Below are positions 7,361 through 42,710 of a stretch of 64,000 nucleotides of DNA, piece after piece. The position numbers and the translations under genes are program-made. The notes under the pieces are model-generated. The model made no database searches and had not been told where the DNA came from. It saw nothing but the letters and a program-made list of their open reading frames with translations. The DNA lies in the NCBI GenBank assembly GCA_964590205.1, contig CAZPVO010000002.1:1005-65004 (forward strand), given 5' to 3'. Each line of letters opens with the position of its first letter. Within the stretch, counting starts at the first letter, position 1. Source of the stretch: an uncultured Candidatus Saccharibacteria bacterium (lineage in GTDB: Bacteria > Patescibacteriota > Saccharimonadia > Saccharimonadales > JAGQNJ01).

Positions 7361-7388
7361 ATCTACCTTGTGGCCAGGTCTTTAACAA
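7360..7388 (-). promoter_or_regulatory. putative sigma-70-type promoter of the hrcA operon
   Basis: Minus strand TTGTTA-N17-TAGATT, abutting CIRCE. The -10 overlaps the stop codon of the upstream 336-aa gene. Confidence 0.45.
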
Positions 7389-8373
7389 CTTTGTAGCTTA
7401 GGTTACGGACTACTTTTGCAAGCGCTTCGTTGCTTGCCGTACCTTCTAAAGGTGCCATTTCTATCTCCTCATAAGGGGAAGTATATTGACCGTAAGCAAC
7501 TTCAGTTACTTGACCATCCACTACTGTTACTGCAGTCTTCCCAAAAGACTCAAGCATCCCAGAACGAGGAAGCTTATATACTTCAACGAGTGCAAATGTA
7601 TCGCGATCACCAGATTCATCATCTACTACTCTTGTATACAAAACGTTAATTGCACCCTTGGTCCTGGTTTTTGAGCTGTATGTCTCTTTCCCATTCTCTC
7701 TATTAAATCGACGAAGTGAGTTAACTATGTCTGCAACGTGCTCTTCATTTTGCATTCGTTGTTTTTCTTCGCGTCTTTCTTGGCGTGTTTGATTGGCCCC
7801 CGTCGCAATAGTTGCCAACTGCAACGCTCTGACTACTCGATCTAGAGGTAATATGCCATGATCTGATTGGTCTTTCCATTCTTCAATACGGTAAGCTGTC
7901 GCTTTTACGCCACGCTTAGTGCCAAAGCGAAAATCGTCAATCCATGAATTATTGTACTCGTAGCTGTGAAGTCCAGTTACTCTCCCGCGTTGTTCATCGT
8001 GCTGTAATACAATCTGAGTGTAGAGCTTATTAGGAATTGGAAAAGCAGTACGCCACACATTTACGACTGTTTTGTCAGGAGTCTTTGACACATGCCCTCG
8101 AATACCGCCCTCTTCATCATCAGTCAACGGTTTACCTTGCCAGTCACTATGAAATGGCCCCTCTGGTAGTTTCATTGTAAGTTCACCCACGCTTTGCCAT
8201 AGATATACAGATCGGGCCTTTTCAATAGCACTTTTTACACCTTGCCAACCCTCAGAAAAGGCTTCTGTGCCGATTGCGATTGCATCCGAAAGCATTTCTG
8301 CGCCAGTGCCTAAAGCCGCAGGAACTGCAACTGCCATTTCACCACCCGCTTCAATCATTGTTTTTGCACTCAT
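7363..8373 (-). CDS. hypothetical protein (336 aa)
   Basis: Long uninterrupted ORF. No family recognised. Confidence 0.6.
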   Translation of the reverse strand: MSAKTMIEAGGEMAVAVPAALGTGAEMLSDAIAIGTEAFSEGWQGVKSAIEKARSVYLWQSVGELTMKLPEGPFHSDWQGKPLTDDEEGGIRGHVSKTPDKTVVNVWRTAFPIPNKLYTQIVLQHDEQRGRVTGLHSYEYNNSWIDDFRFGTKRGVKATAYRIEEWKDQSDHGILPLDRVVRALQLATIATGANQTRQERREEKQRMQNEEHVADIVNSLRRFNRENGKETYSSKTRTKGAINVLYTRVVDDESGDRDTFALVEVYKLPRSGMLESFGKTAVTVVDGQVTEVAYGQYTSPYEEIEMAPLEGTASNEALAKVVRNLSYKVVKDLATR

Positions 8374-8470: not shown

Positions 8471-9100
8471 ATGAACGCTCAAGCGAGCAATACGCAAATT
8501 CAATCAATCAAAGAGTGGCTTGGCAATGGATCAATTAATATTTTTGGCCGGCCGTTTGCCGGAAAAGATACTGTTTGTCGAAAATTAGCTGAGGTACTCG
8601 CTGCTGAAATAATCGGTGGTGGCGATATTATGCGCAACACACCCGAATTTGCGGCAACCCAAGCTAAAGTAGATGATGGCAGTCTAGCCCCGAGCGATGA
8701 GTTTCTGCAGATGATTACACCCGTATTTTCAAGAGAAGATCTTCAGGGTAAATCGCTTGTTTTAAGCTCTGTTGGCCGATGGGATGGTGAACAACAAGGC
8801 GTACTGGCAGCAGCTGAAAAGTCTGGACATACAATTAAATGTGTCGTCTATGTTGATATCACGGTAAATGAACTTCACAAGCGTTGGGAAGCTTCACGAC
8901 AACTTGCCGACAGGGGTGTACGAAAAGATGACGATGAGTCAGCACTCGATAAACGCATATCCGAATTCAACAATAAAACAGTTCCTGTTTTGGATTTCTA
9001 TAAACAAAAAGGGTTACTCGTTGAAGTAAACGGCATGAACAGCCGTGAGGAAGTTTTGCAAGAAATTCTAGACAAACTCGTTAGTCGTACTTCATCATAA
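8471..9100 (+). CDS. adenylate-kinase-family nucleotide kinase (divergent P-loop)
   Basis: INIFGRPFAGKDT...LAE.L.AEIIGGGDIMR aligns with the Adk N-terminus (GxPGxGKGT...GD.LR). A TATAAT box lies about 10 nt upstream of the start. Confidence 0.55.
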   Translation: MNAQASNTQIQSIKEWLGNGSINIFGRPFAGKDTVCRKLAEVLAAEIIGGGDIMRNTPEFAATQAKVDDGSLAPSDEFLQMITPVFSREDLQGKSLVLSSVGRWDGEQQGVLAAAEKSGHTIKCVVYVDITVNELHKRWEASRQLADRGVRKDDDESALDKRISEFNNKTVPVLDFYKQKGLLVEVNGMNSREEVLQEILDKLVSRTSS

Positions 9101-9221
9101 AACCTGTAGTTACACCCCTTGCTTTTTAGATAGGCCAGCAACCATATGCTTGTGATGCACTATGGCGGTGTGTTGGTAACGATTGCCTAACAGATTGTGA
9201 TGACAGTTGTGACGTGTTACA

Positions 9222-10973
9222 TTGAGACATTGTAGTGGAGGAGACGTGGCGGAGCATCTAAATGTACCACATGGAGGGAAACTTGTAGATCTGATGGCCA
9301 GTGGATCATCAGCCGCCAAGTTAAAAAAGCAGGCTGTTAATTTCAAAAGTTGGGATTTAACTCCAAGGCAGTTATGCGATGTTGAAATGTTGGTGTCTGG
9401 CGCCTTTTCGCCCCTCACTGGCTTTATGAATAAAAAGGAGTACGAGAGCGTCTGCAAAGACATGCGCTTATCCGACGGCACTCTATGGCCCATGCCAATC
9501 ACGCTCGATGTTGATGATAAGTTTGCCAAGGACTTAAAAAAAGGTGTTCGTGTCGCGCTCCGAGATCAAGAAGGAGTCATCCTGGCCGTGCTAGAAGTTG
9601 GTGATGTGTGGAAGCCAAACAAAAGTAAAGAAGCGAAGTCAGTGTTCGGTACAAATGATCAAAATCACCCAACCGTGCAATACTTGCACCACAAATCACA
9701 CGACACATATGTAGGCGGCAAAATAACTGGGCTAGAGCTACCTCGTTACTACGACTTCAGTGAACTGAGATATACGCCAGTCGAGCTTCGCGAACATTTC
9801 AAGAAGCTGGGCTGGACCAAGGTAGTGGCCTTTCAAACCCGAAACCCTATGCACCGAGCACACGTTGAATTAGCACTTCGGGCAGCAAAGCAAACGCAAG
9901 CAAACCTACTCATACATCCGGTTGTGGGTATGACAAAACCGGGAGACGTTGATCATTACACACGTGTGCGAGTCTACCAGGCAGTCCTAAAGAAGTTCCC
10001 CAAGTCCACGGCTATGATCTCGCTTTTGCCGCTCGCCATGCGCATGGGTGGCCCGCGAGAAGCACTCTGGCATATGATTATCCGCAAAAATTATGGAGTA
10101 ACTCATTTTATTATTGGCCGTGATCATGCCGGACCGGGTAAAAACTCAAAAGGTAATGATTTTTATGAACCATATGATGCACAGCAACTGGCAGCCAAGT
10201 ATGCCAAGGAAATAGGTGTAAAGGTAATTCCCTTCCAAATGATGGTGTTCGTACCAGAACATGACGTGTACATGCCAATTGATGAAGTTCCTGATGGAGC
10301 GGAATATCTGAGTATTTCGGGAACTGAACTCAGGGCAAGACTCGCTGATGGTCGGCCATTGCCAAAGTGGTTCACCTACCCCGAGGTGGAAGTAGAGCTT
10401 CGCAAAACCTATAAACCGCGACCCAAACAAGGCTTGGCAATATTTTTCACCGGCCTTTCTGGTGCTGGAAAATCGACAATTGCCAATGCCTTGATGGTAA
10501 AACTTATGGAACAAGGAAAGCGAACTGTGACGCTGCTTGATGGTGATCATGCCCGCAAGCATCTGTCCTCAGAACTCGGGTTTAGTAAAGAGCACCGAGA
10601 TCTTAACGTAGCACGAATTGGCTTCGTAGCGAGTGAAATCTCAAAGCATGGCGGAATCGCACTCTGCACCCCTATCGCACCCTACGATAAAATTCGCAAA
10701 AAGGTTCGTACCATGGTTCGAGAAAGTGGCGGAAACTTTGTGCTGGTATATGTCGCGACACCGCTCGAAGAATGTGAAAAAAGAGATCGCAAAGGTCTCT
10801 ATGCAGCAGCACGAACTGGTAAGCTCAAAGCATTTACCGGAGTTTCCGACCCTTACGAGACTCCGGCCGACGCCGAGCTAGTGCTTAATACTGTTGGCTT
10901 TAGTCCTGACGAACTGGCAAACCGCATCTTGCTGTATCTCGAAAAAGAAGGTTTCTTGGAGACTACAACATAA
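9222..10973 (+). CDS. bifunctional sulfate adenylyltransferase / adenylylsulfate kinase (PAPS synthesis)
   Basis: ATP-sulfurylase motifs FQTRNPMHRAH and IIGRDHAGPG. C-terminal APS-kinase motifs FFTGLSGAGKST and LLDGDHAR. The exact start is uncertain (ATG 9222 or nearby GTG). Confidence 0.9.
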   Translation: MRHCSGGDVAEHLNVPHGGKLVDLMASGSSAAKLKKQAVNFKSWDLTPRQLCDVEMLVSGAFSPLTGFMNKKEYESVCKDMRLSDGTLWPMPITLDVDDKFAKDLKKGVRVALRDQEGVILAVLEVGDVWKPNKSKEAKSVFGTNDQNHPTVQYLHHKSHDTYVGGKITGLELPRYYDFSELRYTPVELREHFKKLGWTKVVAFQTRNPMHRAHVELALRAAKQTQANLLIHPVVGMTKPGDVDHYTRVRVYQAVLKKFPKSTAMISLLPLAMRMGGPREALWHMIIRKNYGVTHFIIGRDHAGPGKNSKGNDFYEPYDAQQLAAKYAKEIGVKVIPFQMMVFVPEHDVYMPIDEVPDGAEYLSISGTELRARLADGRPLPKWFTYPEVEVELRKTYKPRPKQGLAIFFTGLSGAGKSTIANALMVKLMEQGKRTVTLLDGDHARKHLSSELGFSKEHRDLNVARIGFVASEISKHGGIALCTPIAPYDKIRKKVRTMVRESGGNFVLVYVATPLEECEKRDRKGLYAAARTGKLKAFTGVSDPYETPADAELVLNTVGFSPDELANRILLYLEKEGFLETTT

Positions 10974-11042
10974 GGTACAATAAAACATAAGCATACGAGG
11001 AACAGTTGTTGTAATGAAAGAACTTCCCAGCGAGAAACAAAT
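10974..11042 (+). promoter_or_regulatory. conserved cassette leader 1 with 10-codon uORF (MKELPSEKQI)
   Basis: GGTACAATAAAACATAAGC block. The uORF 11014-11046 has its TGA overlapping the main ATG (ATATGA). Homologous to the leaders at 13224 and 15398. Confidence 0.5.
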
Positions 11043-12344
11043 ATGAGCAGGCTTCCAACTCCTGGTAGTGACAGCGGTAATTGGGGCGATATACTTAATG
11101 ACTTTTTGAGTCAGTCTATTAGTAGTGATGGAACACTAAAATCTAGTGCGGTATCTACAGCTGGTACTAATAGCTTTGTAAGTAAAACTGGCGATACTAT
11201 GTCGGGCGGGTTGATGGTAGCTATAAAAGCAGCGGCCGGTGGGACAGAGACAGCTACGCTAGGTACTGGCTCTGCATTTGGTGCAGGATACATCAGTGCA
11301 ACCTCTGGTCGCACAGCACTTCTTAAGTCGTCTGGCCCTGGATCATGGGCAGGCGGATACGTCTCTGGGGCGAGTGGAGTCGACGCTACACTCAGGTCTG
11401 ACACTAGCCAAGCTGCTTTCTCATTTGGCTCAATCAAAAAAGGTGGTGCTATCGAATCGTTGAATGAAGGTACCTGGGCTGGAGGCTATGCTTACTCGGG
11501 CGGTGCGGTTCGAGCCATTGCACAAGGTTCACAGGCTTTTGGCTATACCTACGGATCAACCACACTAATCAGATCTAATGCTCAGGGTGGTCATGCTTCT
11601 GGTGGTGCTTGGACATCAGGATCAATCAAAGCAAGTGGGTACGGATCTATTTCTCATGGCTACTCTAAGGGTGCCAGTTCAACGGTTTATGCTTCAGGAT
11701 CAGGTGCACAAGCATGGGGTTATGCATATGCAAGTGGCTCTGTATTGGCTCAATCACAAGGGACTCAAGCCACTGGCTTTGCAAGTGGTTCAAACGCTCG
11801 AGTATCTGCAGTTGGCAGAGGAGGCTTTGCTGGTGGATATGCACGATCGTCTGGGCAAGTAAGAACTACGAATAACGGTTCCTTTTCGCATGGCTATGCT
11901 AAAAATTTAAGTGCAGTAATTGAAGCAACCGGCTGGGGCTCGTTCGCACAGGGCTACACTCTCTCTGCAGGTGTCATCACATCAAGTGGTTATGGCAGCA
12001 TGGCGAGAGGAAGCTCGATTGGTGCAAGTAGTGCCATTACAGCTAGCAATGCTGGATCCTTTGCCAGTGGCTATTCAAAAAACAGCGGTACCATTGTTGC
12101 TTCAGCCAAGGGCGCCTTTGCTCACGGCTATGCCTCATCCGGCACTACCGTTACTGCTTCAGCAGCAAACTCGTTCCAATTCGGTAAAGGTACTAACTCT
12201 ACCGCCGATTCACTTCGTGTCGGTGTAGGAATTCGATTGTTCGGCACAGTTGCAACACCGGGCTCACCGGCAAATGGCGATGTTTGGCTTGACCCAGATG
12301 GGCATGTTAAAATACGTTCAAATGGCTCAACTATCTCACTGTAA
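11043..12344 (+). CDS. tail-fibre-like repeat protein, shared N-terminal module (paralogue 1)
   Basis: N-terminus MSRLPTPGSDSGNWGDILNDFL is shared with ORFs 13291 and 15468. The body is a long run of ~19-20-aa G/S/A-rich repeats (..GS.A.GY...S......AS..). No signal peptide. Confidence 0.65.
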   Translation: MSRLPTPGSDSGNWGDILNDFLSQSISSDGTLKSSAVSTAGTNSFVSKTGDTMSGGLMVAIKAAAGGTETATLGTGSAFGAGYISATSGRTALLKSSGPGSWAGGYVSGASGVDATLRSDTSQAAFSFGSIKKGGAIESLNEGTWAGGYAYSGGAVRAIAQGSQAFGYTYGSTTLIRSNAQGGHASGGAWTSGSIKASGYGSISHGYSKGASSTVYASGSGAQAWGYAYASGSVLAQSQGTQATGFASGSNARVSAVGRGGFAGGYARSSGQVRTTNNGSFSHGYAKNLSAVIEATGWGSFAQGYTLSAGVITSSGYGSMARGSSIGASSAITASNAGSFASGYSKNSGTIVASAKGAFAHGYASSGTTVTASAANSFQFGKGTNSTADSLRVGVGIRLFGTVATPGSPANGDVWLDPDGHVKIRSNGSTISL

Positions 12345-12362
12345 TTGTGAGGGTGGGATCTT

Positions 12363-13166
12363 ATGAAGGGTATTCACATGCTCTGTGGTTTGCCGCGAGC
12401 AGGCTCAACGTTGCTTGCAAATGTACTCGAGCAGCATCCTGATCTGTGGGTATCGGGCACTTCATCTCTATCACCATGCGTCCAATCAGTTTCTCAATGT
12501 TTATCCAATAATGAAGAAGTAAAATCAGAACTTTCTGTTGATCCACAATATTATGAGCGTTACAGAACTGGTATGTGCAGTTTCGCGGAGGGCTGGTACA
12601 AAGACGTTAACTCAACAGTCATCGATAAGGGGCGCCTTTGGACCTCAATGCGACCGCTGGTAGATGAGCTTTGGCCAAAAGCAAAATTTATTGTGTGCGT
12701 CAGAGATCCCCGTGATGTGATTGCCTCTGTTGAGAGCCGACATCGTGATACGGCACTGTTTATGCAAGATGGTGACCAAACGCTTTATGAATCTGCAGAA
12801 AACTTTATGAAAAAGGACGCTATGGTTGGTGGTCCAATGTGGCATATTGAGGATCTTATTCGCAGGCAAATGACCAAAAACATTGTTTTTGTAAGATATG
12901 AGTCGTTTGTTGTTAATCCACAACTGACTATGGACGAACTTTCTGACACGCTCAAACTCAAGTCATTCAAATGGAATTTCAAGAACGTTAAAAATCGTCA
13001 GCGTGATGCTGATGCGATTTGGAAGCAAAAATTTCCACATACCGGTGATGGATCGGTCAAAGCAAAAATTGGCTCTTGGCGTGATGTAATGGATAAGGAA
13101 CTTGCCGATAAGATCGTAAACGTCTATCCCCTGTACGCAACAACCTTTGGGTACAAAGAAGACTGA
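12363..13166 (+). CDS. PAPS-dependent sulfotransferase
   Basis: 5'-PSB-like GLPRAGSTLL near the N-terminus and 3'-PB-like VRDPRDVIASV. Begins 19 nt after the fibre gene. Confidence 0.75.
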   Translation: MKGIHMLCGLPRAGSTLLANVLEQHPDLWVSGTSSLSPCVQSVSQCLSNNEEVKSELSVDPQYYERYRTGMCSFAEGWYKDVNSTVIDKGRLWTSMRPLVDELWPKAKFIVCVRDPRDVIASVESRHRDTALFMQDGDQTLYESAENFMKKDAMVGGPMWHIEDLIRRQMTKNIVFVRYESFVVNPQLTMDELSDTLKLKSFKWNFKNVKNRQRDADAIWKQKFPHTGDGSVKAKIGSWRDVMDKELADKIVNVYPLYATTFGYKED

Positions 13167-13223
13167 TCTTGAACTTAGAGAACCGTATCTGTTCATAATT
13201 GCTGGTGTGTCCTTCCTCTAGTT

Positions 13224-13290
13224 GGTACAATAAACCATAAGCTCGTGAGGGCAAATTTTGGTATGAAGAAAAAAACTTTGAGGATAATAA
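13224..13290 (+). promoter_or_regulatory. conserved cassette leader 2 with 11-codon uORF (MKKKTLRIINE)
   Basis: GGTACAATAAACCATAAGCTCGTGAGGGCA block. The uORF 13263-13298 ends 2 codons into the main ORF. SD GAGGA lies inside the uORF. Confidence 0.5.
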
Positions 13291-13941
13291 ATGAGTAGGC
13301 TACCAACACCGGGTGGTGATGCCGGTAACTGGGGTGATATTCTTAATGACTTTTTAGATCAGTCGCATAATAGTGATGGGACATTAAAAGACAGTGCTGT
13401 TTCAAGTTCCGCATTGCTGAAAAGCAATAATTTGAGTGATGTGAGTTCAACGAGCTCTGCACGCACAAATCTAGGCTTAGGTGATTCGGCCACCAAAAAT
13501 GTTGGCTCAATTGCCGGTACGGTTGCTGCCGGTAATGACAGCCGCTTAAGCGATACTCGTGTGCCGACTGATGGGTCTGTAACGCCTACTAAGTTGGACC
13601 GTGGCTACACTGAATCAAAAAACGGTGGTAAAGAGGGCATCCAAGCCCACGGCAGTACAGGATCGGCTGTCACCATTAATCTTGCCAACGGCAATGTCCA
13701 CACAGCCACCCAAAACCAATCCTGCACATACACCTTTACTGGCGCCACCAGCAGTACATCCTGTTCGTTTCTATTAATACTTGGTGGCGTAACCGGCATC
13801 CCAACCTGGCCGGTAAACGTAAAGTGGGCCAATGGCAGCATCCCAACAATATCAGGAGAATGCATTCTAACTTTTGTAACAGTTGATGGCGGAACTAATT
13901 GGTATGGGTCATTGGTAGGCAATGACTTTGCAACAGCTTAG
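13291..13941 (+). CDS. tail-fibre-like protein, shared N-terminal module (paralogue 2)
   Basis: N-terminus MSRLPTPGGDAGNWGDILNDFLDQSHNSDGTLK. The C-terminus (...ILTFVTVDGGTNWYGSLVG) resembles phage fibre or receptor-binding tips. No signal peptide. Confidence 0.65.
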   Translation: MSRLPTPGGDAGNWGDILNDFLDQSHNSDGTLKDSAVSSSALLKSNNLSDVSSTSSARTNLGLGDSATKNVGSIAGTVAAGNDSRLSDTRVPTDGSVTPTKLDRGYTESKNGGKEGIQAHGSTGSAVTINLANGNVHTATQNQSCTYTFTGATSSTSCSFLLILGGVTGIPTWPVNVKWANGSIPTISGECILTFVTVDGGTNWYGSLVGNDFATA

Positions 13942-13947
13942 TAAACA

Positions 13948-15348
13948 ATGAGAACAACTGCGCTAAAACTAATAACTTCATCGCTTCTGGCCTCGCAACG
14001 ATTTGAGAACAACGTTTTGCGGCTTAATCCAACACTTTATTTACCGATGCAAGAATCTGCGGGCGAAACAACTTATCAAGACCTGACTTACAACGGTCAC
14101 GATGCGATCGAAAAACAAGCCGGCCACCAAACAAATGGCCAAACTGGTGGCTATGGCCGGTTGGCTGTTAAGTTCGACGGCACGTCACTCTCTGGGCTAA
14201 CAATACCTGAAACGCCAGAGATTGCGATGACAGCCAGCGGGTCCGAAAAAGTCTCAGTTATGTGTTTGTTTAAGGCCAACGGCAATGGTGGTTACTTAGT
14301 AACTCAAGATAATGGTGGTAATCGGCCGTGGGTAACAAGTGTGCAGGACAAACTATACGGCTACGCCAACAACCAATCTGGACCAGGACTTTATACCGAC
14401 AATGATTATCGAAGTGACGGCAAGTTTCACCTATTTATTGCCACTATGGACGATGGCACGAATGAGTGTAAACATTACGTCGATGGATTGGCCACGACAG
14501 TACTGGGAGGAACTCTTGGCCCTTTTCAAGCAACTAATGGCTCAACGCCAATTCAGATTGGTACCAATGTGGTCAACGATTTTCGATTCGATGGCTGGAT
14601 AAGTGACGTCGCTGTTTGGTATGGCGGTATTCTCACCGAAGACAATGTAGCCGAACTGTATAAAAATCTTATATACGGCAGTGGTTCTGCGTATGCCTAC
14701 CGCACAGCCGTGCTGACCGACGCGCCCTCATACTTATGGGTTGGTGATGATGCCTCCGGTGATTTTCAGGAATACAATAACGGGCCGGCCCTCACCCACC
14801 AAACCGGCACCATTAGATATCGCTTTGATGCGATTACAGCTGGCGAGCTTGTAGCTCAAGGTAGTGGATCAGCAGGCGCGCCTTCGCACTTTTCAACCAC
14901 CAATTCAGGCCCGCCGTCGGCAATCAGTGGTTCAGAATGGACCATGGAATGCTTGTTTAGGCAGCCAGGTGGCAACGACTCCGGCAGATTAGCATTTTAT
15001 ATTGGCGATTCTAGTTCGAATGGTGCTGGTATTTATGTTAATGGGCCAAGTGCCAACTTGCCCGTCCTGGGTTTATTGGGCGGTGTGGCTTTTGTTGGCA
15101 GTTCAACAAACATCAGTAAGGGTCCGGCACATCACCTTGTTTTGCGTCGCAAAGCTGGAGTAGTTTCACTTTGGGTTGACGGAGTTTCCGTAGCCACAAG
15201 CAGTTCAACACCAAACGCTCCTAGTAACGTTACAGAAATTTATCCTCATAGCGACAATGCAAACACCTATGGAACAATCGCCTTTACGGCAGTTTATAAC
15301 TCAGCTCTCTCAGACGCCCGAATAGCCATCCACGCCGCGGCAATGTAA
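13948..15348 (+). CDS. double LamG / concanavalin-A-like lectin domain protein
   Basis: Two LamG-type terminal motifs (FDGWISDVAVWYGGILTEDNVAELY; IAFTAVYNSALSDARI). Starts 7 nt after paralogue 2. Confidence 0.6.
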   Translation: MRTTALKLITSSLLASQRFENNVLRLNPTLYLPMQESAGETTYQDLTYNGHDAIEKQAGHQTNGQTGGYGRLAVKFDGTSLSGLTIPETPEIAMTASGSEKVSVMCLFKANGNGGYLVTQDNGGNRPWVTSVQDKLYGYANNQSGPGLYTDNDYRSDGKFHLFIATMDDGTNECKHYVDGLATTVLGGTLGPFQATNGSTPIQIGTNVVNDFRFDGWISDVAVWYGGILTEDNVAELYKNLIYGSGSAYAYRTAVLTDAPSYLWVGDDASGDFQEYNNGPALTHQTGTIRYRFDAITAGELVAQGSGSAGAPSHFSTTNSGPPSAISGSEWTMECLFRQPGGNDSGRLAFYIGDSSSNGAGIYVNGPSANLPVLGLLGGVAFVGSSTNISKGPAHHLVLRRKAGVVSLWVDGVSVATSSSTPNAPSNVTEIYPHSDNANTYGTIAFTAVYNSALSDARIAIHAAAM

Positions 15349-15397
15349 CGACCGGGGAATCAACACTTATCCTAGCTCTCACTAATGTTCTCTGTTA

Positions 15398-15467
15398 GAC
15401 TAGTAACCATAAGCTCTTGAGGGCATGTTTTGCTATGAAAGAAAAAATACTTAGGATACAAAACTAG
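15398..15467 (+). promoter_or_regulatory. conserved cassette leader 3 with 10-codon uORF (MKEKILRIQN)
   Basis: TAGTAACCATAAGCTCTTGAGGGCA block. The uORF 15435-15467 has its TAG directly abutting the main ATG. Confidence 0.5.
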
Positions 15468-16820
15468 ATGAGTAGATTACCAACTCCAGGAAGTGATGCC
15501 GGTAACTGGGGTGATATTCTTAATGACTTTTTAGATCAGTCGCATAACTCTGATGGAAGTCTAAAAAGTTCAGCCGTAACAGCTGCAGGCGGTGATTCAA
15601 GCACTAAAGTTAGCAAGTCTGGCGACACCATGACAGGCGGCTTACATGTTGATGATGGGGGTGGAGCAACATCAGATCTTGAAGCTGGTGCACTATACGT
15701 TAGTACGAATGATGGTCTACATCAGGCTTCTCTTAATTCGTCATACCTTTCAATTTCCGATACCACCACCGGTAATAATGTCGGGGGCTTTTTTGGGCAG
15801 GACGGCAAAGCTCTACTCTTTGGCGCAAGTACAAGCGACTATGCCTATGTTTCGGCACTGTCGACGGATTTTCAAGTTCGCTGGCAAGTCTTGCACGACG
15901 GATCAATCAGTTGGGGTGATGGATCGGCTTCCCCCGATACGGTCATATCTCGGACGGCTGCAAACACACTGTCAATGGGAGCCGGTGACAAGCTCCAACA
16001 AAATGCAGCGCCGACTACCGGTGATGACCTGACCAATAAAACCTATGTCGATAGCACGGCTGGTTCTCCGTCAGCCGCGGTCATTCTGGCTCCTGGATCT
16101 TCCACTAGAAATATTATCCAGCCTAGCGGCAACTTTAAGCCGCTCATTGTTCGTGGTCATTCAACCCAAGCCACTTCCCTACTTGAACTTCAAAACAGTA
16201 CCCCCACAGCCCTCTTTACAGTTGCCTCTGATGGTGCAGTTACTATGGCCAGCTCAGTCACTCACAGTTTGGGTGCAAGCACCGTTGTCAATCACTCAGG
16301 AGGTTTATATCAAGGACGGCAAGTTAAAGTTGACGGGTATTTTTCTAATACTTCAGGTAATCCACCGGGTGTCGGATTAATACGCTTAAATAACGCTGAG
16401 GTTATTGCTTGGCGCAATGCCGGCAATTCTGCTGATTACACACTTACGGTTGATAGTACTGATCAACTCGTGACAACAACAGGTGTGACGGCAAGTGGAC
16501 AAGTAACTGATCATCAGAACATTAATGCACAGACCGGCACAACGTATACGCTTGTTATTGGTGACGACGGCAAAATAATTACACTGAGTAATGCCTCGGC
16601 GATTACACTGACGGTGCCAACTAATGCTTCGGTGGCCTTTCCGATAGGTACGCGTATTGATCTGATTCAAAAAGGAGCTGGACAAGTAACTGTTGCTGCT
16701 GCAGGTGGAGTAACGATTAATGCGACACCGGGGCTTAAAGCACGTGCCCAATATTCTGCCGCCACACTTATTAAAGAGGCTACGAACACTTGGTACTTGG
16801 TTGGAGACCTGAGTGCATGA
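15468..16820 (+). CDS. tail-fibre-like protein, shared N-terminal module (paralogue 3)
   Basis: N-terminus MSRLPTPGSDAGNWGDILNDFLDQSHNSDGSLK. C-terminus ...FPIGTRIDLIQKGAGQVTV...NTWYLVGDLSA is phage minor-tail-like. No signal peptide. Confidence 0.65.
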   Translation: MSRLPTPGSDAGNWGDILNDFLDQSHNSDGSLKSSAVTAAGGDSSTKVSKSGDTMTGGLHVDDGGGATSDLEAGALYVSTNDGLHQASLNSSYLSISDTTTGNNVGGFFGQDGKALLFGASTSDYAYVSALSTDFQVRWQVLHDGSISWGDGSASPDTVISRTAANTLSMGAGDKLQQNAAPTTGDDLTNKTYVDSTAGSPSAAVILAPGSSTRNIIQPSGNFKPLIVRGHSTQATSLLELQNSTPTALFTVASDGAVTMASSVTHSLGASTVVNHSGGLYQGRQVKVDGYFSNTSGNPPGVGLIRLNNAEVIAWRNAGNSADYTLTVDSTDQLVTTTGVTASGQVTDHQNINAQTGTTYTLVIGDDGKIITLSNASAITLTVPTNASVAFPIGTRIDLIQKGAGQVTVAAAGGVTINATPGLKARAQYSAATLIKEATNTWYLVGDLSA

Positions 16821-18550
16821 GTGCCTATCCACTAGGGGTAGTTGCATCTGAATTAAATCGGCACACCAATGCCCCACTCGGTCCGTGGGCCGAAGGTGGC
16901 GACGTAGTGTTCATCGACGGCTGGGAAATCCACACCTTCACTGGTAACGGCACGCTCACCGTGCTACGAGACACGAATGCTGACTATCTCGTGGTCGGTG
17001 GTGGTGGCGGAGGCAGCGTCGGTGGTGGTGGAGCCGGTGGTCTACTCACAGGTACCGACACAGTATTGGTTGGCGACCTGCCGGTCACGGTCGGAGCAGG
17101 AGGTGCAGGCGAAACGTCGTCTGCCGACAACGCTGGAACTGGCAGCAACTCGGTCTGGAACGGTCACACTGCTCTTGGGGGTGGTGCAGGAGGTTTTATC
17201 GGTAATGGCCATCCCGGAGGCTCGGGTGGCGGTGGTGGTGGCATAGGCGGAGGTGGTGGCGGAGCTGGCACTGTCGGCCAAGGCAATAATGGTGGTGGCC
17301 CTGGCGGAGGCACATGTGGAGCGGGTGGTGGTGGTTCTGGCGCAGTTGGACAGCAGGCTAATCCATCGGGTGGAGACGGGCATGGCGGTGACGGTGGCGC
17401 AGGGACGTCATCGTCAATCTCTGGTTCATCTGTCGATTATGCCGGAGGCGGGGGTGGTGGTGGCACCGCTTCCCAAGGTAATGGCGCTGCAGGGGGCGGC
17501 AACGGGGCCAATTTCGGACCAGGTGCACCGGCCGCAGCAAATACCGGTAGTGGTGGTGGTGGTATCTATTCGGCATCACCTGGTGGTGCTGGAGGAAGTG
17601 GCGTCGTAATCCTGAGGGCACTCGGTTCACCTCGCCCTGACCCACCGTCTGCGCTGGTACTCACTCCCGGAGCAACGTCGATAGACGTCGCATGGACTAA
17701 CTCTCCATCTGGCAATGTCGACCACTATGAGTACCGAGTCAGTCATGACGGCGGTTCGACATGGTCGCCTGACTGGACGACAACTCCGTCTGGCTCGCCG
17801 TTCACAATAAGTGGCCTGACAGCAGGCACCGAGTACACGGTTGCTCTGCGCGCAGTCGACACTGATGCCATTGCATCAACGGTGATCAGCGACACAGCAT
17901 CGACGCCGAGTACCTACGATGCACTCATGGCAGGGCTGATCTCCAATCCACTTGATGTTTATTACCCTATGACCGAGACAAGCGGAACCACTATTCAAGA
18001 TTCGTCGGGTAATGGACTTAATCTAACCGCCTCGGCAACAATTGTTGGAGATGGTACATCAATCCAGTTCGATGGAAATTATGACGCTTCGCGAGCATTG
18101 GCATTTACCTCAGCTTTCCATGCACCCAAAACCGAGATCGTGTGGCTCAAAACCTCAACAGTTGTTGATACGCTTGCGATGCTCATGTGGCGTACCCCTG
18201 GTGGTGGCGATGCAGGCGGTTTATTTCTTAACTTCGTCGGTGATGACGGCAACGCCGAACTGTATCTGAACAGTGGAGCTCGCGGTGCTTGGGGTGGCAA
18301 TGCACTAAATAATAACCAGTGGCATATGCTCGCTTTTGTTCATGATGTTGGATTTGACTACTCAGTCTATCTCGATGGTGTTGCCGTGCGAGCAGGTGGC
18401 GGTGACGGTATTGGTTCGAGCAATGCCACCACCTTGTTTGTCGCTAGCAACGACGGCATCCAAAAGTTCATCGGTAGCCTTCGCCGAGTGTCTGTACTAC
18501 ACACACTACTCAGTGACTCGGACATCGCCGCGTTGTGGGCTGCTGGGTAA
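16817..18550 (+). CDS. glycine-rich domain / fibronectin-III / LamG protein
   Basis: ATGA overlap with paralogue 3. DYLVVGGGGGGS... poly-Gly domain ending GGSGVVILR, an FN3 segment (...YEYRVSHDGGSTWS...TEYTVALRAVD), and a LamG-type end (FIGSLRRVSVLHTLLSDSDIAALW). Confidence 0.65.
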   Translation: MSAYPLGVVASELNRHTNAPLGPWAEGGDVVFIDGWEIHTFTGNGTLTVLRDTNADYLVVGGGGGGSVGGGGAGGLLTGTDTVLVGDLPVTVGAGGAGETSSADNAGTGSNSVWNGHTALGGGAGGFIGNGHPGGSGGGGGGIGGGGGGAGTVGQGNNGGGPGGGTCGAGGGGSGAVGQQANPSGGDGHGGDGGAGTSSSISGSSVDYAGGGGGGGTASQGNGAAGGGNGANFGPGAPAAANTGSGGGGIYSASPGGAGGSGVVILRALGSPRPDPPSALVLTPGATSIDVAWTNSPSGNVDHYEYRVSHDGGSTWSPDWTTTPSGSPFTISGLTAGTEYTVALRAVDTDAIASTVISDTASTPSTYDALMAGLISNPLDVYYPMTETSGTTIQDSSGNGLNLTASATIVGDGTSIQFDGNYDASRALAFTSAFHAPKTEIVWLKTSTVVDTLAMLMWRTPGGGDAGGLFLNFVGDDGNAELYLNSGARGAWGGNALNNNQWHMLAFVHDVGFDYSVYLDGVAVRAGGGDGIGSSNATTLFVASNDGIQKFIGSLRRVSVLHTLLSDSDIAALWAAG

Positions 18551-26237: not shown

Positions 26238-26314
26238 GGCGGCGTAGCTCAGCCGGTTAGAGCGCAGGACTCATAAGCCTGAGGTCACAGGTTCGATCCC
26301 TGTCGCCGCTACCA
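26238..26314 (+). tRNA. tRNA with CAT anticodon (elongator Met or lysidine-dependent Ile2)
   Basis: GGCGGCGTAGCTCAGCCGGTTAGAGCGCAGGACTCATAAGCCTGAGGTCACAGGTTCGATCCCTGTCGCCGCTACCA. Cloverleaf elements, T-loop GGTTCGATCC, encoded CCA. Confidence 0.9.
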
Positions 26315-28613: not shown

Positions 28614-28688
28614 AGCGGGGTGGAGCAGCGGCAGCTCGCGTGGCTCATAACCACGAGGTCGCAGGTTCGAGTCCTGCCCCCGCAACCA
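28614..28688 (+). tRNA. initiator-type tRNA-Met (CAT)
   Basis: AGCGGGGTGGAGCAGCGGCAGCTCGCGTGGCTCATAACCACGAGGTCGCAGGTTCGAGTCCTGCCCCCGCAACCA. Closely resembles E. coli tRNA-fMet (GCGGGGTGGAGCAGC...CCCCGCAACCA) and has an unpaired 1:72 position. Confidence 0.85.
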
Positions 28689-30237
28689 AGTAAGAATTTA
28701 AAGCCCTTTCGGGGGCTTTTTGTATTGAAATACATCTGTAAAGCTCGCTTATTTCTGAGGTTCCAAACTTATGGCTTGATGAGTCATACACTACACCCCT
28801 TGGGAACAACATGCTTTGGAACCTAATTTGCAAGTCAACCTCTGAAGAAGCCCATTGCTTGTCTACATTCTCCATAACGTTTATAGCTTGCTCAATGTCG
28901 GTTTCACGAATCATTTGCTGTTGTTCTAGCTTTGTTAAGTCAGATGTCACTTCAAGCTTTTGATTATCTAGGTCGGCTATATACGCGTCTTTCTCGTCTT
29001 TTGTAAGTTCTTCAGCAACGAACTTATCAATTGCCTTACTTCGCAGTTCGGATATTTTGTTTAGCTTTTCTCTGCTCAGGCCTATCCTTACATTAAGACT
29101 ATCTAGTGCAGCATTAGACTCTTTAACAAGTACGTGCTTATAAACCTTCAAGATTTCGCTAGAGGGTTTAATTTTTTCGAGCATCTTTTCAAACTCGTTG
29201 TGTACTATGTCCGCCTTCACCGACGGAACTTTACCAACACATGACTTTCGAGCACAGTGATACCTTGGAGATGACTGTCCATTACCCGTGGTTGGTGCAG
29301 ATGAGTATAGTGATTTATTACAATTACGGCATAGCAACAAACCACGTAAAGGATACCTGCTGTTTATGTGGTCATGTCTTTCACCTTTTCGAGAGTTTTC
29401 ACCATAAAGCAGGTTATGATTTCGTTTAAAGACTTCCTCACTAATAATGGCAGGGTGCTTACCTTGGACATTTTTGTAGTTTGTAAACTTATCCGATACA
29501 TAACCTGCATACGTCGGGTTCTTTATTAGCCTATGTATACTGTCTTCGCCTAAGAATTTATCATATCGGCTCTTAAGCCCAACTTGCTTTGCATAACGTG
29601 TGAGCTCAGCCTTTGAAATATCACCAACACTAAATCTTTCCAATACACTCTTTACTTTATCAGCCATAGGTGTCTTTCTAAGTGTTGGTCTTAGCTTGCC
29701 TAAATCATTAGGAATTTTATTAGGCAAATAGCCAACAATAGGTGGGTGCTGATAGAACCCCTGCATTGCTAATGAACGCATGTTATCAATTGTCACTTCA
29801 GCTTTTCCTTCATTATCAAGTTGGCCAAGAGCAACAAGCAGATTTTCCATAAACCTCCCCTCTTTTGTGTCGTTAACAGCTGGTTCTGTTGCTGACCGAA
29901 TCGTTATCCCGCTTGCCCTCAACACGAGTTTGACGTTGGTGGTGTATGAATCGTTATCACGAGAGGCTCGCTTCATGTTGTAAACAACCCAGTGGTTTAT
30001 TTCAGACTTGTGTTTAATGCAGTAGTTCAGCAGTGCTTGTAATCCATCACGCTCTGTATTCTTGCCAGACTTAGCAATATCTTCAAACCATTTAACTATG
30101 TGTATATTGTTTAGGTCAGCAAATCTCTGAATACTGTCACGTTGCGTAATAGGACTTTCGTTATTTACCTGCCTTTGTGACGATATCCTTATGTAAGCGA
30201 CTGCTTTTTTCTTGGACTCATTCATACTTGTTTCCAT
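28645..30237 (-). CDS. large serine recombinase (integrase)
   Basis: Resolvase catalytic N-terminus AVAYIRISSQRQ, a recombinase domain, a zinc ribbon CRNC...RYHCARKSC, and a coiled-coil. The last ~15 codons are antisense to the tRNA. Confidence 0.9.
   Translation of the reverse strand: METSMNESKKKAVAYIRISSQRQVNNESPITQRDSIQRFADLNNIHIVKWFEDIAKSGKNTERDGLQALLNYCIKHKSEINHWVVYNMKRASRDNDSYTTNVKLVLRASGITIRSATEPAVNDTKEGRFMENLLVALGQLDNEGKAEVTIDNMRSLAMQGFYQHPPIVGYLPNKIPNDLGKLRPTLRKTPMADKVKSVLERFSVGDISKAELTRYAKQVGLKSRYDKFLGEDSIHRLIKNPTYAGYVSDKFTNYKNVQGKHPAIISEEVFKRNHNLLYGENSRKGERHDHINSRYPLRGLLLCRNCNKSLYSSAPTTGNGQSSPRYHCARKSCVGKVPSVKADIVHNEFEKMLEKIKPSSEILKVYKHVLVKESNAALDSLNVRIGLSREKLNKISELRSKAIDKFVAEELTKDEKDAYIADLDNQKLEVTSDLTKLEQQQMIRETDIEQAINVMENVDKQWASSEVDLQIRFQSMLFPRGVVYDSSSHKFGTSEISELYRCISIQKAPERALNSYLVAGAGLEPATSWL
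28699..28722 (+). terminator. intrinsic terminator after tRNA-fMet
   Basis: AAAGCCC-tttc-GGGGCTTT followed by TTG. Confidence 0.6.
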
Positions 30238-30262
30238 AATACACCATGTAATTTATTGGAAC

Positions 30263-30418
30263 CTATAATTTGAGTGATTTTCTAGCTATTAGGGTTAGTA
30301 CATTAACTAGTTCTTGCACTTGGTGGTCGGTTAAGTAACTATACTTGCGTCCTAGCAGTTTTTTAGCCTCTATGACGGTAGTTTTGGGAGGTTCATGCAA
30401 GTCATTGCTATTGAGCAT
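30263..30418 (-). CDS. possible small protein (51 aa), not in ORF track
   Basis: Own translation MLNSNDLHEPPKTTVIEAKKLLGRKYSYLTDHQVQELVNVLTLIARKSLKL. The ATG overlaps the upstream gene stop by 11 nt. It fills the gap before the recombinase. Confidence 0.3.
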   Translation of the reverse strand: MLNSNDLHEPPKTTVIEAKKLLGRKYSYLTDHQVQELVNVLTLIARKSLKL

Positions 30419-30713
30419 CAGAAGCCCTCACAGGGCTGCTAAATGTACGAGCCTCTTTCACATACTTGCTGAATAATTTTCCTGGGAAGTCTCCTTCTGA
30501 GGCACGCCTACGCCATTCGTTGACCTGTGCATAGCCAAAGTCTTTTACTACACCGCAATACCATTTTCGAAACTGCACATTGTTATATTCAGCAACCAAT
30601 TCGTCAGCAAGCTTATCAATGGCTTCAATTGGTAACTGTTTAATTGAAGTGTCCGATGAACTGTCTATTGGCAGTTGTTTGTTACTTAAAATATTTGAAA
30701 TGCCAGTACTCAC
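30408..30713 (-). CDS. hypothetical protein (101 aa), element-borne
   Basis: ORF only. No family recognised. Confidence 0.5.
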   Translation of the reverse strand: MSTGISNILSNKQLPIDSSSDTSIKQLPIEAIDKLADELVAEYNNVQFRKWYCGVVKDFGYAQVNEWRRRASEGDFPGKLFSKYVKEARTFSSPVRASDAQ

Positions 30714-30766
30714 ATCCCAATTGTATGTACGACTTCAGAATGTAGCTGCCCCAACAAACAAAATTA

Positions 30767-31159
30767 TTATCTGGTCTTTAAATATTTCTTATTTCTGTTG
30801 TAGTATTTTTGTAAGTCAAATTCAGTTAAGAAGGGATATTCGCCATCAAAGTATGGTATCTCGTCGTTCGCATATGCTTCATGTATGTTTTTAAATGTTA
30901 GTTTACGTTTCCTTAAGAAATACACGCCATATAGTAAAACAAGGTCTTTCGGTGGCTTCACTCTTTTATAGTGCTTTTTCCCTGTTACTTTTGCACGTGC
31001 ATCACTAAACGTATCCCATGCCTGAAGAAACTCTTCCTTCGTAGCATCAATCCCAAATGAAATAATAAATTTCTGCTTCTCAACGTCGTAGTCCATTCCT
31101 ATATTTTTATTTGGAATGTTCTTTTTCATTTTGAACCAGAGCTTTAACCGAAGCTCCAC
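30767..31159 (-). CDS. hypothetical protein (up to 130 aa), element-borne
   Basis: ORF only. The start is uncertain (internal Met at MKKNIPNK). Confidence 0.45.
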   Translation of the reverse strand: MELRLKLWFKMKKNIPNKNIGMDYDVEKQKFIISFGIDATKEEFLQAWDTFSDARAKVTGKKHYKRVKPPKDLVLLYGVYFLRKRKLTFKNIHEAYANDEIPYFDGEYPFLTEFDLQKYYNRNKKYLKTR

Positions 31160-31484
31160 CTAGTATGGGTTTTACCTCTTGTAATGTATGTTCAAAATCA
31201 TGTTTTAGACTAAATTCGTCTTTCTTTTTTCTTTCTAGATACTTTAATGCCAAGTCAGGACTTTTCTCAAACGATTTAATAACAGAAGCTCTGGCTTTAA
31301 GAATTGGCATTTCTTTTAACTGTGTTTTTCGCTCCAGAAACTTTGGGTTCTTCTCTTGAAATTTATAGAGTGTTGCGGGGGCTATATTAGCATATAAGGT
31401 GGCTTCTAAGTCTGTACAGCCTAATGCAAACGCCTCTTCAAGCTTGCTTCTCACTTCGCTTGTCATTATTGTTGGTCTACCCAT
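31107..31484 (-). CDS. HTH protein, terminase-small-subunit-like / DNA-binding
   Basis: The ATG at 31484 is preceded by AGGAGGG. MGRPTIMTSEVRSKLEEAFALGCTDLEATLYANIAPATLYKF resembles N-terminal HTH domains of phage small terminase or transposase-associated proteins. Confidence 0.45.
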   Translation of the reverse strand: MGRPTIMTSEVRSKLEEAFALGCTDLEATLYANIAPATLYKFQEKNPKFLERKTQLKEMPILKARASVIKSFEKSPDLALKYLERKKKDEFSLKHDFEHTLQEVKPILGGASVKALVQNEKEHSK

Positions 31485-31500
31485 ATTTTTAACCCTCCTA

Positions 31501-32118
31501 TTAATGCAATGTCGTAGCGATGTCAACACACTCATTAATTGCTTGAGTATTGCTAACACCAACATATGAGGTGCATTGGTTTCTAGCATTATTACTGTCT
31601 GGTATATAAAAATATACGTAAAAGTATTCAGTTATAGGCTGGGCGTAGGTCTCTTTTGTAGAGTGCCCATCGCTGTACGTACAATTTTTACTCCAGCCGT
31701 TTACACCTTGAATATGTCCAGCACCGTTTCTATATAAAGAATGTGTCTCATACTGCACATCATTGTTGTTGGTACAACTTATAAGTGTTGGGCTAGAGAT
31801 AGTTTCCTGAGTTGGAGCTGACGGATTATTGCTACTAACTGAAGGTTTAATGCTACTACTTGTTGAAGACGATTGACTATTATTATCAGATTTTGTTGTT
31901 TGTGTTGTAGGATTGGTTGTAGTTGTCTTTTCTTTAGCATTAGGTTGTTCATTTGACGTTTGATTTTGGTTGCTTTGATTATTTAATGAATCATGGGATT
32001 TTAAGGCATAGATACCTACTGGCAGGGATATTAGCAATCCGAAAAATAGACCAATTAATAGCTTGGTGTTATTTTTAGTAACTTTTTTTATACCGCTAAG
32101 ATATTTCTTCACACCCAC
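31501..32118 (-). CDS. membrane-anchored/secreted protein with S/T/N-rich linker
   Basis: N-terminal TM helix (LLIGLFFGLLISLPVGIYAL), then a low-complexity QTSN/ST-rich stretch, then a Cys-containing globular end. Confidence 0.55.
   Translation of the reverse strand: MGVKKYLSGIKKVTKNNTKLLIGLFFGLLISLPVGIYALKSHDSLNNQSNQNQTSNEQPNAKEKTTTTNPTTQTTKSDNNSQSSSTSSSIKPSVSSNNPSAPTQETISSPTLISCTNNNDVQYETHSLYRNGAGHIQGVNGWSKNCTYSDGHSTKETYAQPITEYFYVYFYIPDSNNARNQCTSYVGVSNTQAINECVDIATTLH

Positions 32119-42634: not shown

Positions 42635-42710
<76 letters not shown>

Follow-up and report, generated by a model that had tools for sequence, protein, structure and literature searches.

A 10-kb block at positions 8471 to 18550 of the window (the whole 64-kb stretch of Candidatus Saccharibacteria DNA analyzed here) combines synthesis of 3'-phosphoadenosine 5'-phosphosulfate (PAPS), a sulfotransferase, and a series of fiber proteins in eight intact open reading frames (ORFs), all of which lie on the plus strand. 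We put the probability at about 0.55, slightly better than even, that this block is a phage-derived virion-fiber (receptor-binding) cluster with its own sulfation pathway, which modifies the adjacent fiber. Three of the genes are central to this reading:

9246 to 10973, plus strand: bifunctional sulfate adenylyltransferase/adenosine 5'-phosphosulfate (APS) kinase (Sat/CysC), assigned by Pfam, NF004040, and motifs
11043 to 12344, plus strand: repeat fiber of cassette 1, candidate sulfation substrate, with an adaptor, repeats, and a conserved C terminus
12363 to 13166, plus strand: PAPS-dependent sulfotransferase with a TPST-like fold, predicted to be cytoplasmic, assigned by Pfam, PHROG, a PDB profile, and AlphaFold2/Foldseek

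Conserved pairing of repeat fibers and sulfotransferases

Sulfotransferase homologs were matched 48 times, on phage-like contigs. In all 13 members of the family with at least 34% identity and readable upstream DNA (L002, L004, L005, L007, L008, L065, L146, L149, L151, L225, L226, L251, and the window itself), the gene just upstream of the sulfotransferase encodes a FAxG-repeat fiber. The gap between the two genes measures -25 to +35 nucleotides (nt) at 8 of the 13 loci and 72 to 355 nt at the other 5, and the fibers of all loci except L004, L008, and L149 end in the same C-terminal motif (QFGPGTN..ADSL.VG..IRL.G..NGD.W...V.IRSNG). The N-terminal domains of these fibers vary, with Mtd_N in L002 and L005 and a 37-amino-acid (aa) adaptor only in the window; what stays constant is thus the repeat body together with the enzyme. 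Searching in the reverse direction, from the C-terminal motif of the fiber, we found a sulfotransferase gene no more than 5 kb downstream at four of six independent viral loci. With the three further loci contributed by this fiber-started search, the pair is kept at at least 16 independent loci, several of them on bona fide phage contigs, and the association between fiber and sulfotransferase is real and conserved. As far as gene order and sequence can tell, its recurrence suggests that some phage fibers are sulfated.

More distant sulfotransferases (at most 31% identity), found in 80 bacterial genomes that included 10 Patescibacteria metagenome-assembled genomes (MAGs), had no fiber or Sat/CysC gene within 10 kb, and we therefore rejected them as members of the same system. 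Two such enzymes, with approximately 29% identity and neither fibers nor PAPS genes beside them, come from one Parcubacteria MAG and one Saccharibacteria MAG (L102, 6474 to 9146, and L123, 7022 to 15922); they sit among gatB, a gene encoding a large TPR protein, and lepA, a gene that also borders the block in the window.

Recruitment of PAPS genes beside sulfotransferases

On the actinophage contig L005, the fiber gene is followed by genes encoding the sulfotransferase, a small ORF, CysD, CysN, and CysC and then by glycosyl- and methyltransferase genes. With a CysD that is 62 to 64% identical to annotated actinobacterial CysD, this is, judged by its predicted gene products, the functional combination of the window, reached via a nonhomologous ATP sulfurylase. 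An APS kinase gene was also located right after or near the sulfotransferase gene at 14 more distant viral loci and at five metagenome loci; the kinase of L040 was confirmed by Pfam (APS_kinase, 5e-12), and the CysC neighboring the sulfotransferase in L202 is 61 to 62% identical to that of the window. This repeated, independent colocalization is what chiefly leads us to assign the PAPS genes to the sulfotransferase and not to sulfur assimilation. The earlier note on this DNA, which was made from the sequence alone, had proposed that PAPS synthesis, sulfotransferase, and fibers form one functional unit, a view that gains support both from the conserved fiber-sulfotransferase pairs and from the independent recruitment of PAPS genes.

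At a group of loci (L040, 9100 to 11620, and also L027 to L030, L037, L038, and L053 to L057), the sulfotransferase is accompanied by a 145-aa APS kinase and a 125-aa HxGH nucleotidyltransferase (CTP_transf_like). This trio is found on viral contigs with a G+C content of approximately 0.35, beside giant collagen-like fiber genes and sometimes with an FkbM methyltransferase gene inserted. The 125-aa nucleotidyltransferase could be a minimal substitute for ATP sulfurylase.

PAPS synthesis enzyme and sulfotransferase

Sat/CysC was recognized by Pfam over both of its halves (PUA_2, 2e-57; ATP-sulfurylase, 3e-84; APS_kinase, 5e-56) and passed the NCBIfam equivalog NF004040 with 914.7 bits, against a cutoff of 669, over residues 7 to 572 of 575. 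The catalytic motifs of both halves (HRAH, GRDHAG, GLSGAGKST, and LDGD) are intact. On the strength of the intact P-loop, the LDGD motif, and the equivalog score, the enzyme should turn sulfate and two ATP into PAPS. Neither cysH and cysIJ nor any other sulfate assimilation gene was found among the scanned ORFs of the 64-kb window.

The sulfotransferase matched Sulfotransfer_1 (3e-17) and Sulfotransfer_3 (3e-16) in Pfam as well as phrog_27463 (8.5e-28), and its 5'-phosphosulfate-binding (PRxGST) and 3'-phosphate-binding (RDPRD..S) motifs are invariant across 20 homologs. NCBIfam returned just a 25-residue match to NoeE. In a search with hmmsearch against PDB sequences, TPST1/2 came out on top at 2e-14, with the next family at 3e-6. 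The enzyme has no membrane segment. With its AlphaFold2 model, which is a confident one (predicted local distance difference test [pLDDT] score of 90.7), Foldseek also placed TPST1/2 first (E value of 7e-11 and template modeling [TM] score of 0.65 to 0.69), followed by the CurM sulfotransferase and heparan-sulfate 3-O-sulfotransferases, which were also significant. Sequence identity to the TPSTs is 16 to 20%. The equivalent of TPST2 Lys158 is kept, as part of an invariant D88-K89 pair.

Fiber cassettes and their leaders

The fiber part of the block consists of three two-gene cassettes, each of which opens with a repeat of approximately 180 nt, made up of a 70-nt leader and the 111 nt with which the coding sequence starts. 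In cassette 1, the 433-aa repeat fiber and the sulfotransferase are separated by 18 nt; in cassette 2, a 216-aa fiber and a LamG protein are separated by 6 nt; and in cassette 3, the genes for a 450-aa fiber and a Gly_rich_2/fn3 protein overlap by 4 nt. The leaders and the members of cassettes 2 and 3 are as follows:

10974 to 11042, plus strand: leader copy 1, assigned to repeat families D1, D6, and D7; contains TGGTACAAT and a short upstream ORF (uORF)
13224 to 13290, plus strand: leader copy 2, from the repeat families and the three-way alignment
13291 to 13941, plus strand: fiber of cassette 2, 216 aa, with the adaptor and a tail-fiber-type C-terminal part (tail fiber families in PHROG, with phrog_9017 best at 1.9e-11)
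13948 to 15348, plus strand: partner in cassette 2, with two ConA/LamG-like lectin domains (Pfam Laminin_G_3, 9e-17, in two stretches)
15396 to 15467, plus strand: leader copy 3, from the repeat families and the three-way alignment
15468 to 16820, plus strand: fiber of cassette 3, 450 aa, with the adaptor and a widespread 100-aa phage fiber C-terminal domain
16817 to 18550, plus strand: partner in cassette 3 (Pfam Gly_rich_2, 2.7e-16, and fn3, 4e-8; phrog_2295, 1e-38)

The fiber of cassette 3 additionally matched a minor tail protein family (phrog_8780, 1e-21) and a family of unknown function (phrog_21510, 7e-26), and its partner ends in a ConA/LamG-like region, as judged by eye. All three fibers start with a common N terminus (MSRLPTPGSDxGNWGDILNDFLxQS..SDG.LK.SAV), in which 33 of the first 37 positions are identical. 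No signal peptide, anchor, or secretion gene for the fibers was seen on inspection by eye, without a predictor.

Behind its 37-aa adaptor, the fiber of cassette 1 is made up of approximately 15 rungs of a 19- to 20-aa repeat (G-x-[FW]-[AS]-x-G-Y), followed by the conserved C terminus (QFGxGTN..ADSL.VG..IRL.G...NGD.W). Its self-similarity reaches 0.92, 0.45, and 0.27 at offsets of 39, 19, and 58, compared with a maximum of -0.06 +/- 0.06 for shuffled sequences. Single-sequence AlphaFold2 produced approximately 35 short strands at a moderate pLDDT of 62.6, and we predict the protein to be a beta-solenoid. Foldseek found no significant match for this model (E > 0.1); the list of nonsignificant matches consists of beta-helix adhesins and tailspikes and is headed by UpaB, TibA, and Ag43.

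In the three-way alignment of the leaders, the mean column identity was 79%, and two of the three copies contain an extended -10-like element (TGGTACAAT). Each leader has a uORF starting with ATGAA(A/G), with the products MKELPSEKQI, MKKKTLRIINE, and MKEKNT, that ends at or just past the start codon of the fiber gene. No conserved RNA structure was found in the leaders (-1.97 kcal/mol), and the promoter/terminator scan was uninformative, since its counts stayed under the shuffled expectation.

Phage origin of the fiber modules

A profile of the 37-aa adaptor matched 5793 cluster representatives at an E value of at most 0.001, and 2335 at 1e-10 or below. Strict patterns had matched no viral contig, and a 41-aa query had given no match; the profile search and a broader alignment succeeded. 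The adaptor is always N-terminal, on proteins of 84 to 1439 aa with unrelated C-terminal parts. It was found in phages of Streptomyces (BRock, GiJojo, and LuckySocke) as well as in 24 contigs of IMG/VR, one of which (L234) has large terminase, portal, and major head genes. Similarly, the 100-aa C-terminal domain of the 450-aa fiber has 1818 homologs, many of them 70 to 78% identical, and is present in about 200 minor tail proteins of Gordonia phages; it also occurs downstream of the sulfotransferase in L065 and L225. Other modules of the block recur in that position as well, namely, a protein with three LamG_3 domains in L065 and a Gly_rich_2 protein in L226.

In L002, L005, and L226, homologs of the repeat fiber are encoded within the structural gene modules. 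L005 contains genes for a portal (2e-64), a major head protein (3e-34), a head-tail adaptor, and a major tail protein; L002 contains a Mu-like prohead protease and a tape-measure protein; and in L226 a 1630-aa protein and an M23 peptidase are encoded upstream. Every fiber module of the block is thus a phage virion module. The earlier note had suggested the block as a candidate system for host attachment or for the cell surface in what looked like an episymbiont with a reduced genome. This proposal is not supported, given the virion type of the fiber modules and the lack of any secretion signal or anchor in our inspection by eye. In relatives, the modules have portal, major head, tape-measure, and tail genes as neighbors, a setting that the same note had named as contrary to its proposal.

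The 100-aa fiber-end domain (NAQTGTTYTLVL...TWxLVGDL) often occurs in two to three tandem copies per protein (P0052, P0059, P0066, and P0068, which are relatives of window positions 16500 to 16817), and its identity remains at 70 to 78% across otherwise unrelated fibers. In L005 (5846 to 18197), the fiber, sulfotransferase, CysDNC, and glycosyltransferase genes are located between the major head and head-tail adaptor genes; because of this position, the L005 fiber may be a head or neck fiber instead of a tail fiber.

Proposed mechanism and nature of the acceptor

The mechanism that we infer, together with the acceptor substrate, the sulfation site, and the role of the locus in this cell, would be the following. 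Sat/CysC would make PAPS from sulfate and ATP in the cytoplasm, and the TPST-like sulfotransferase would spend it on O-sulfation of the repeat fiber before assembly or release. The acceptor would most likely consist of hydroxyl side chains exposed once per rung, in a Tyr/Ser/Thr-rich ladder, with a glycan attached to the fiber as a less likely candidate. The other two cassettes would provide alternative fibers; having the 37-aa adaptor in common, all three could dock to one partner. Thanks to the cluster's own PAPS synthesis, the modification would be independent of host-cell PAPS.

Of 109 repeats, 41 have Tyr directly after [FW][AVSG]xG, compared with a background of 3.4%, and most of the others have S, T, R, Q, N, or E there; these polar occupants suggest that the position is exposed. 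The block contains no glycosyltransferase gene, nor is one recorded within 10 kb in L004, L225, and L226; with TPSTs as the best matches by sequence profile and by fold, direct O-sulfation of the protein is the more economical reading.

Several observations weigh against the proposal that the cluster sulfates its own fiber. First, Tyr is missing from the ladder position in the fibers of L004 and L008, although a sulfotransferase gene follows them, which weakens the Tyr ladder as a universal acceptor. Second, glycosyltransferases or FkbM methyltransferases are encoded beside the sulfotransferase in L002, L005, and L030, an arrangement that suits glycan modification, and a glycan acceptor is plausible where such enzymes are present. 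Third, the catalytic Glu of TPST2 (E99, the second Glu of CGEET) aligns with Thr33 of the window enzyme, a residue that does not vary within the family, so that the enzyme counts as TPST-like and not as a canonical TPST. Fourth, two of the six fiber loci (L253 and L258) lack a sulfotransferase gene, which makes the enzyme a frequent accessory and not an obligate partner. Fifth, a distant sulfotransferase of Synechococcus phage S-SCSM1 is encoded among genes annotated for replication and recombination, not among fibers. Finally, the 64-kb window contains no gene for a capsid, portal, large terminase, tape-measure, or baseplate protein.

Some of these observations would also fit a different explanation, namely, that phages carry the sulfotransferase and PAPS genes as "moron" cargo for the sulfation of a host envelope glycan, a lipid, or a small molecule, for instance to block superinfection or alter the cell surface, and that the adjacency to fibers reflects an insertion hot spot. 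The enzymes encoded beside the sulfotransferases of L002, L005, and L030 (GT2/GT1, GT1 plus an FkbM methyltransferase, and an RfbT-like methyltransferase) are typical of glycan tailoring, the S-SCSM1 enzyme is not next to fibers, and the fold matches to the heparan-sulfate 3-O-sulfotransferases and the CurM sulfotransferase are also significant. Moreover, sulfotransferases have been counted as abundant auxiliary genes with no virion link (PMC12285232). However, a hot spot would leave unexplained why the same fiber type precedes the sulfotransferase at 13 of 13 loci, despite differing N-terminal domains, G+C contents, and genome architectures, and why the start and stop codons of the two genes often overlap. 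Several loci, including the window, are without a glycosyltransferase, and the sulfotransferase has no membrane segment and finds protein sulfotransferases at the top by both sequence and fold. We therefore consider the cargo explanation unlikely.

Genomic setting and possible domestication

The earlier note had described a single-strand block with short gaps or overlaps, which the coordinates of the eight consecutive ORFs and their spacings (145, 69, 18, 124, 6, 119, and -4 nt) bear out. The motifs that it quoted could be verified (QTRNPMHRAH, GRDHAG, GLSGAGKST, and LDGD in 9222 to 10973; PRAGST and RDPRD in 12363 to 13166), and its account of the five other large proteins as Gly/Ser/Thr-rich fiber, LamG, and FN3 proteins holds too, with matches to PHROG tail fiber or minor tail families for two of them and Pfam matches to Laminin_G_3 or to Gly_rich_2 and fn3 for two more. 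Two start codons were revised: GTG at 9246 is likelier than 9222 for Sat/CysC, based on a separate gene call on Logan contig L001, and ATG at 16817, which overlaps the preceding stop codon by 4 nt, is likelier for the last ORF.

The block sits between hrcA and lepA, with hrcA-grpE-dnaK-dnaJ as its left flank and lepA-murJ-ftsH-tilS as its right flank. The junction from hrcA through a 336-aa ORF, the adenylate kinase-like (adk-like) gene, and Sat/CysC to the fiber and the sulfotransferase recurs in a separate assembly (L001, from SRR9179560). The 336-aa ORF (7363 to 8373, minus strand), which is divergent from the block, is without a match in Pfam, PHROG, or NCBIfam and was found to be conserved only in the Logan copy. 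The LepA protein of the window has the same 46% identity to its counterparts in a Saccharibacteria MAG and in a Parcubacteria MAG, which favors neither lineage. The first gene of the block completes the feature list:

8471 to 9100, plus strand: divergent adenylate-kinase-family P-loop kinase (Pfam ADK, 1.8e-14)

This protein scored 76 bits or less on NCBIfam adenylate kinase models with cutoffs of at least 150, and no homolog was found at other sulfotransferase loci. Its membership in the unit is uncertain; it could possibly recycle AMP/ADP after PAPS use.

In scans of the 64 kb, the window ORFs of more than 300 aa were assigned. Unlike the fibers of its relatives, those of the window do not lie inside a virion morphogenesis module. 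Nor is the block part of an intact prophage, as the sole integrase gene (28645 to 30237) is 10 kb off, beyond lepA, murJ, ftsH, and tilS. In the 64-kb window, the fiber locus is therefore an orphan, though intact, cluster. We rejected the possibility of a foreign island defined by G+C content: the G+C content at third codon positions (GC3) is 0.33 to 0.47 in the block versus 0.34 to 0.46 in the flanking genes, the surplus G+C stems from Gly and Ala codons, and there is thus no compositional trace of recent acquisition.

The integrase gene belongs to a 3.5-kb element (28614 to 32118; G+C content of 0.37 to 0.41) that comprises a tRNA-Met gene, the large serine integrase (phrog_95, 8e-59), and a TerS-like gene (31107 to 31589; phrog_4102, 2e-16). 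This element could represent either a phage satellite or the stub of a prophage. The only tRNA genes in the window are three tRNA-Met (CAT) genes inside 17 kb (26238 to 26314, 28614 to 28688, and 42635 to 42710), one of which is the apparent integration site of the element.

The orphan locus could be a remnant, a source of fibers for a prophage or tailocin that is encoded in another part of the genome and uses them in trans, or a domesticated adhesin set. In the last case, an episymbiotic or surface-attached bacterium would display or release sulfated orphan phage fibers in order to bind a partner cell, much as Streptococcus mitis uses the phage proteins PblA and PblB. The position amid housekeeping genes, the lack of any morphogenesis gene in the 64 kb, the eight intact ORFs with a GC3 like that of the flanks, and the three cassettes with their own conserved leaders would all suit such a role, as would the relationship of the fiber modules to those of Gordonia, Streptomyces, and Rhodococcus phages. 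These three genera are actinobacteria, which are known hosts of Saccharibacteria. Even so, we regard domestication as distinctly improbable: no signal peptide, anchor, or secretion gene came to light in the inspection by eye, the adaptor N terminus is of the virion-docking kind, and a prophage or tailocin outside the window could make use of the fibers.

That Sat/CysC and the adk-like gene merely represent ordinary host metabolism beside a decaying prophage fiber remnant is very improbable, even though Sat/CysC is a standard bifunctional enzyme, Sat and the adk-like protein are without homologs at the other fiber-sulfotransferase loci (only the APS kinase half recurs), and the leader repeat begins only past the Sat/CysC stop codon, because PAPS genes adjoin related sulfotransferases in L005 and at the 14 viral and 5 metagenome loci described above, with a closely similar CysC in L202, because the first fiber leader abuts the Sat/CysC stop codon with zero gap, and because all ORFs are intact and no other sulfate assimilation gene was identified in the window.

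In its widest form, our proposal is that the phage family and the orphan locus O-sulfate a beta-solenoid virion fiber in the cytoplasm, by means of a TPST-like enzyme that has a noncanonical active site and is supplied by phage-borne PAPS synthesis, and that the locus described here has perhaps been domesticated as a sulfated adhesin set of actinophage-type receptor-binding modules. This wider version is tentative, and we would rather doubt than assume that it holds in full.

Significance

To our knowledge, sulfation of proteins is seen as an essentially eukaryotic modification to which RaxST/RaxX is the rare bacterial exception, and the phage virion modifications that we know of are glycosylations. 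In the literature searched, no report tied a phage sulfotransferase to fibers or described sulfated virions. If the wider proposal is true, the particle would be the first sulfated one among bacteriophages, and the enzyme would define a new class of protein sulfotransferases in prokaryotes. The conserved gene pair, with its repeatedly recruited PAPS genes, would point to sulfation as a means for phages to tune the receptor binding of their fibers, their charge, or their recognition by immune and defense systems, and the sulfotransferase and cysC genes listed as "auxiliary metabolic genes" in viromics would acquire a new meaning. The sulfotransferase family, with its invariant Thr in place of Glu, could serve as a cytoplasmic protein sulfation tool; three genes of the window should be enough to rebuild the reaction in Escherichia coli.

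Comparison with known systems

With TPST1/2, the window enzyme shares the PAPS-dependent fold and the conserved 5'-phosphosulfate-binding Arg, 3'-phosphate-binding Arg/Ser, and Lys158 equivalent (K89). It differs in being cytoplasmic by prediction, in having no anchor and a Thr for the Glu, and in its phage fiber context, where the putative substrate is a Gly-rich beta-solenoid and not an acidic peptide. A bacterial sulfotransferase system, RaxST-RaxP/RaxQ, is known from Xanthomonas oryzae and likewise couples the sulfotransferase with dedicated ATP sulfurylase and APS kinase genes. Similarly, NodP, NodQ, and NodH of Sinorhizobium provide dedicated PAPS synthesis and a sulfotransferase for the sulfation of Nod factors. 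As in the window, a second, dedicated copy of the sulfate activation genes is clustered there with a specific sulfotransferase and gives rise to a sulfated surface or signal determinant; however, NodH acts on a lipo-chitooligosaccharide, the window enzyme has closer relatives than NodH, and neither fibers nor phages are involved. A search with CysD against plasmids matched 161 Sinorhizobium records.

AIDA-I (with Aah) and TibA (with TibC) are beta-helix adhesins with 19-residue repeats, whose helices are modified along their length by a dedicated enzyme of the cytoplasm that is encoded next to them. The repeat fiber resembles them in its 19- to 20-aa period, its predicted beta-solenoid, and the adjoining gene for a modifying enzyme. 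In contrast to these adhesins, it has no autotransporter barrel or translocator, and its putative modifying enzyme is a sulfotransferase and not a heptosyltransferase; with fold matches at E > 0.1, the resemblance is to be read as an analogy.

In one virome study, sulfotransferases rank among the most common auxiliary genes of viruses that infect Patescibacteria (PMC12285232), and PAPS reductase morons are described for Burkholderia phages (PMC2920897). Such virome reports treat sulfur genes as boosters of host metabolism and link them neither to a fiber partner nor to a full unit leading from PAPS to an acceptor. Closer in kind are the mycobacteriophages, whose own glycosyltransferases reportedly modify capsid and tail proteins, a finding attributed to Freeman et al. 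in 2023. There, as in the reading preferred here, cytoplasmic phage enzymes encoded within a structural module are thought to decorate virion proteins (cf. PMC11256854), and the relatives L002 and L005 even carry glycosyltransferases beside the sulfotransferase. What would set the present cluster apart is its chemistry, which would be sulfation, with the biosynthesis of PAPS included in the same module.

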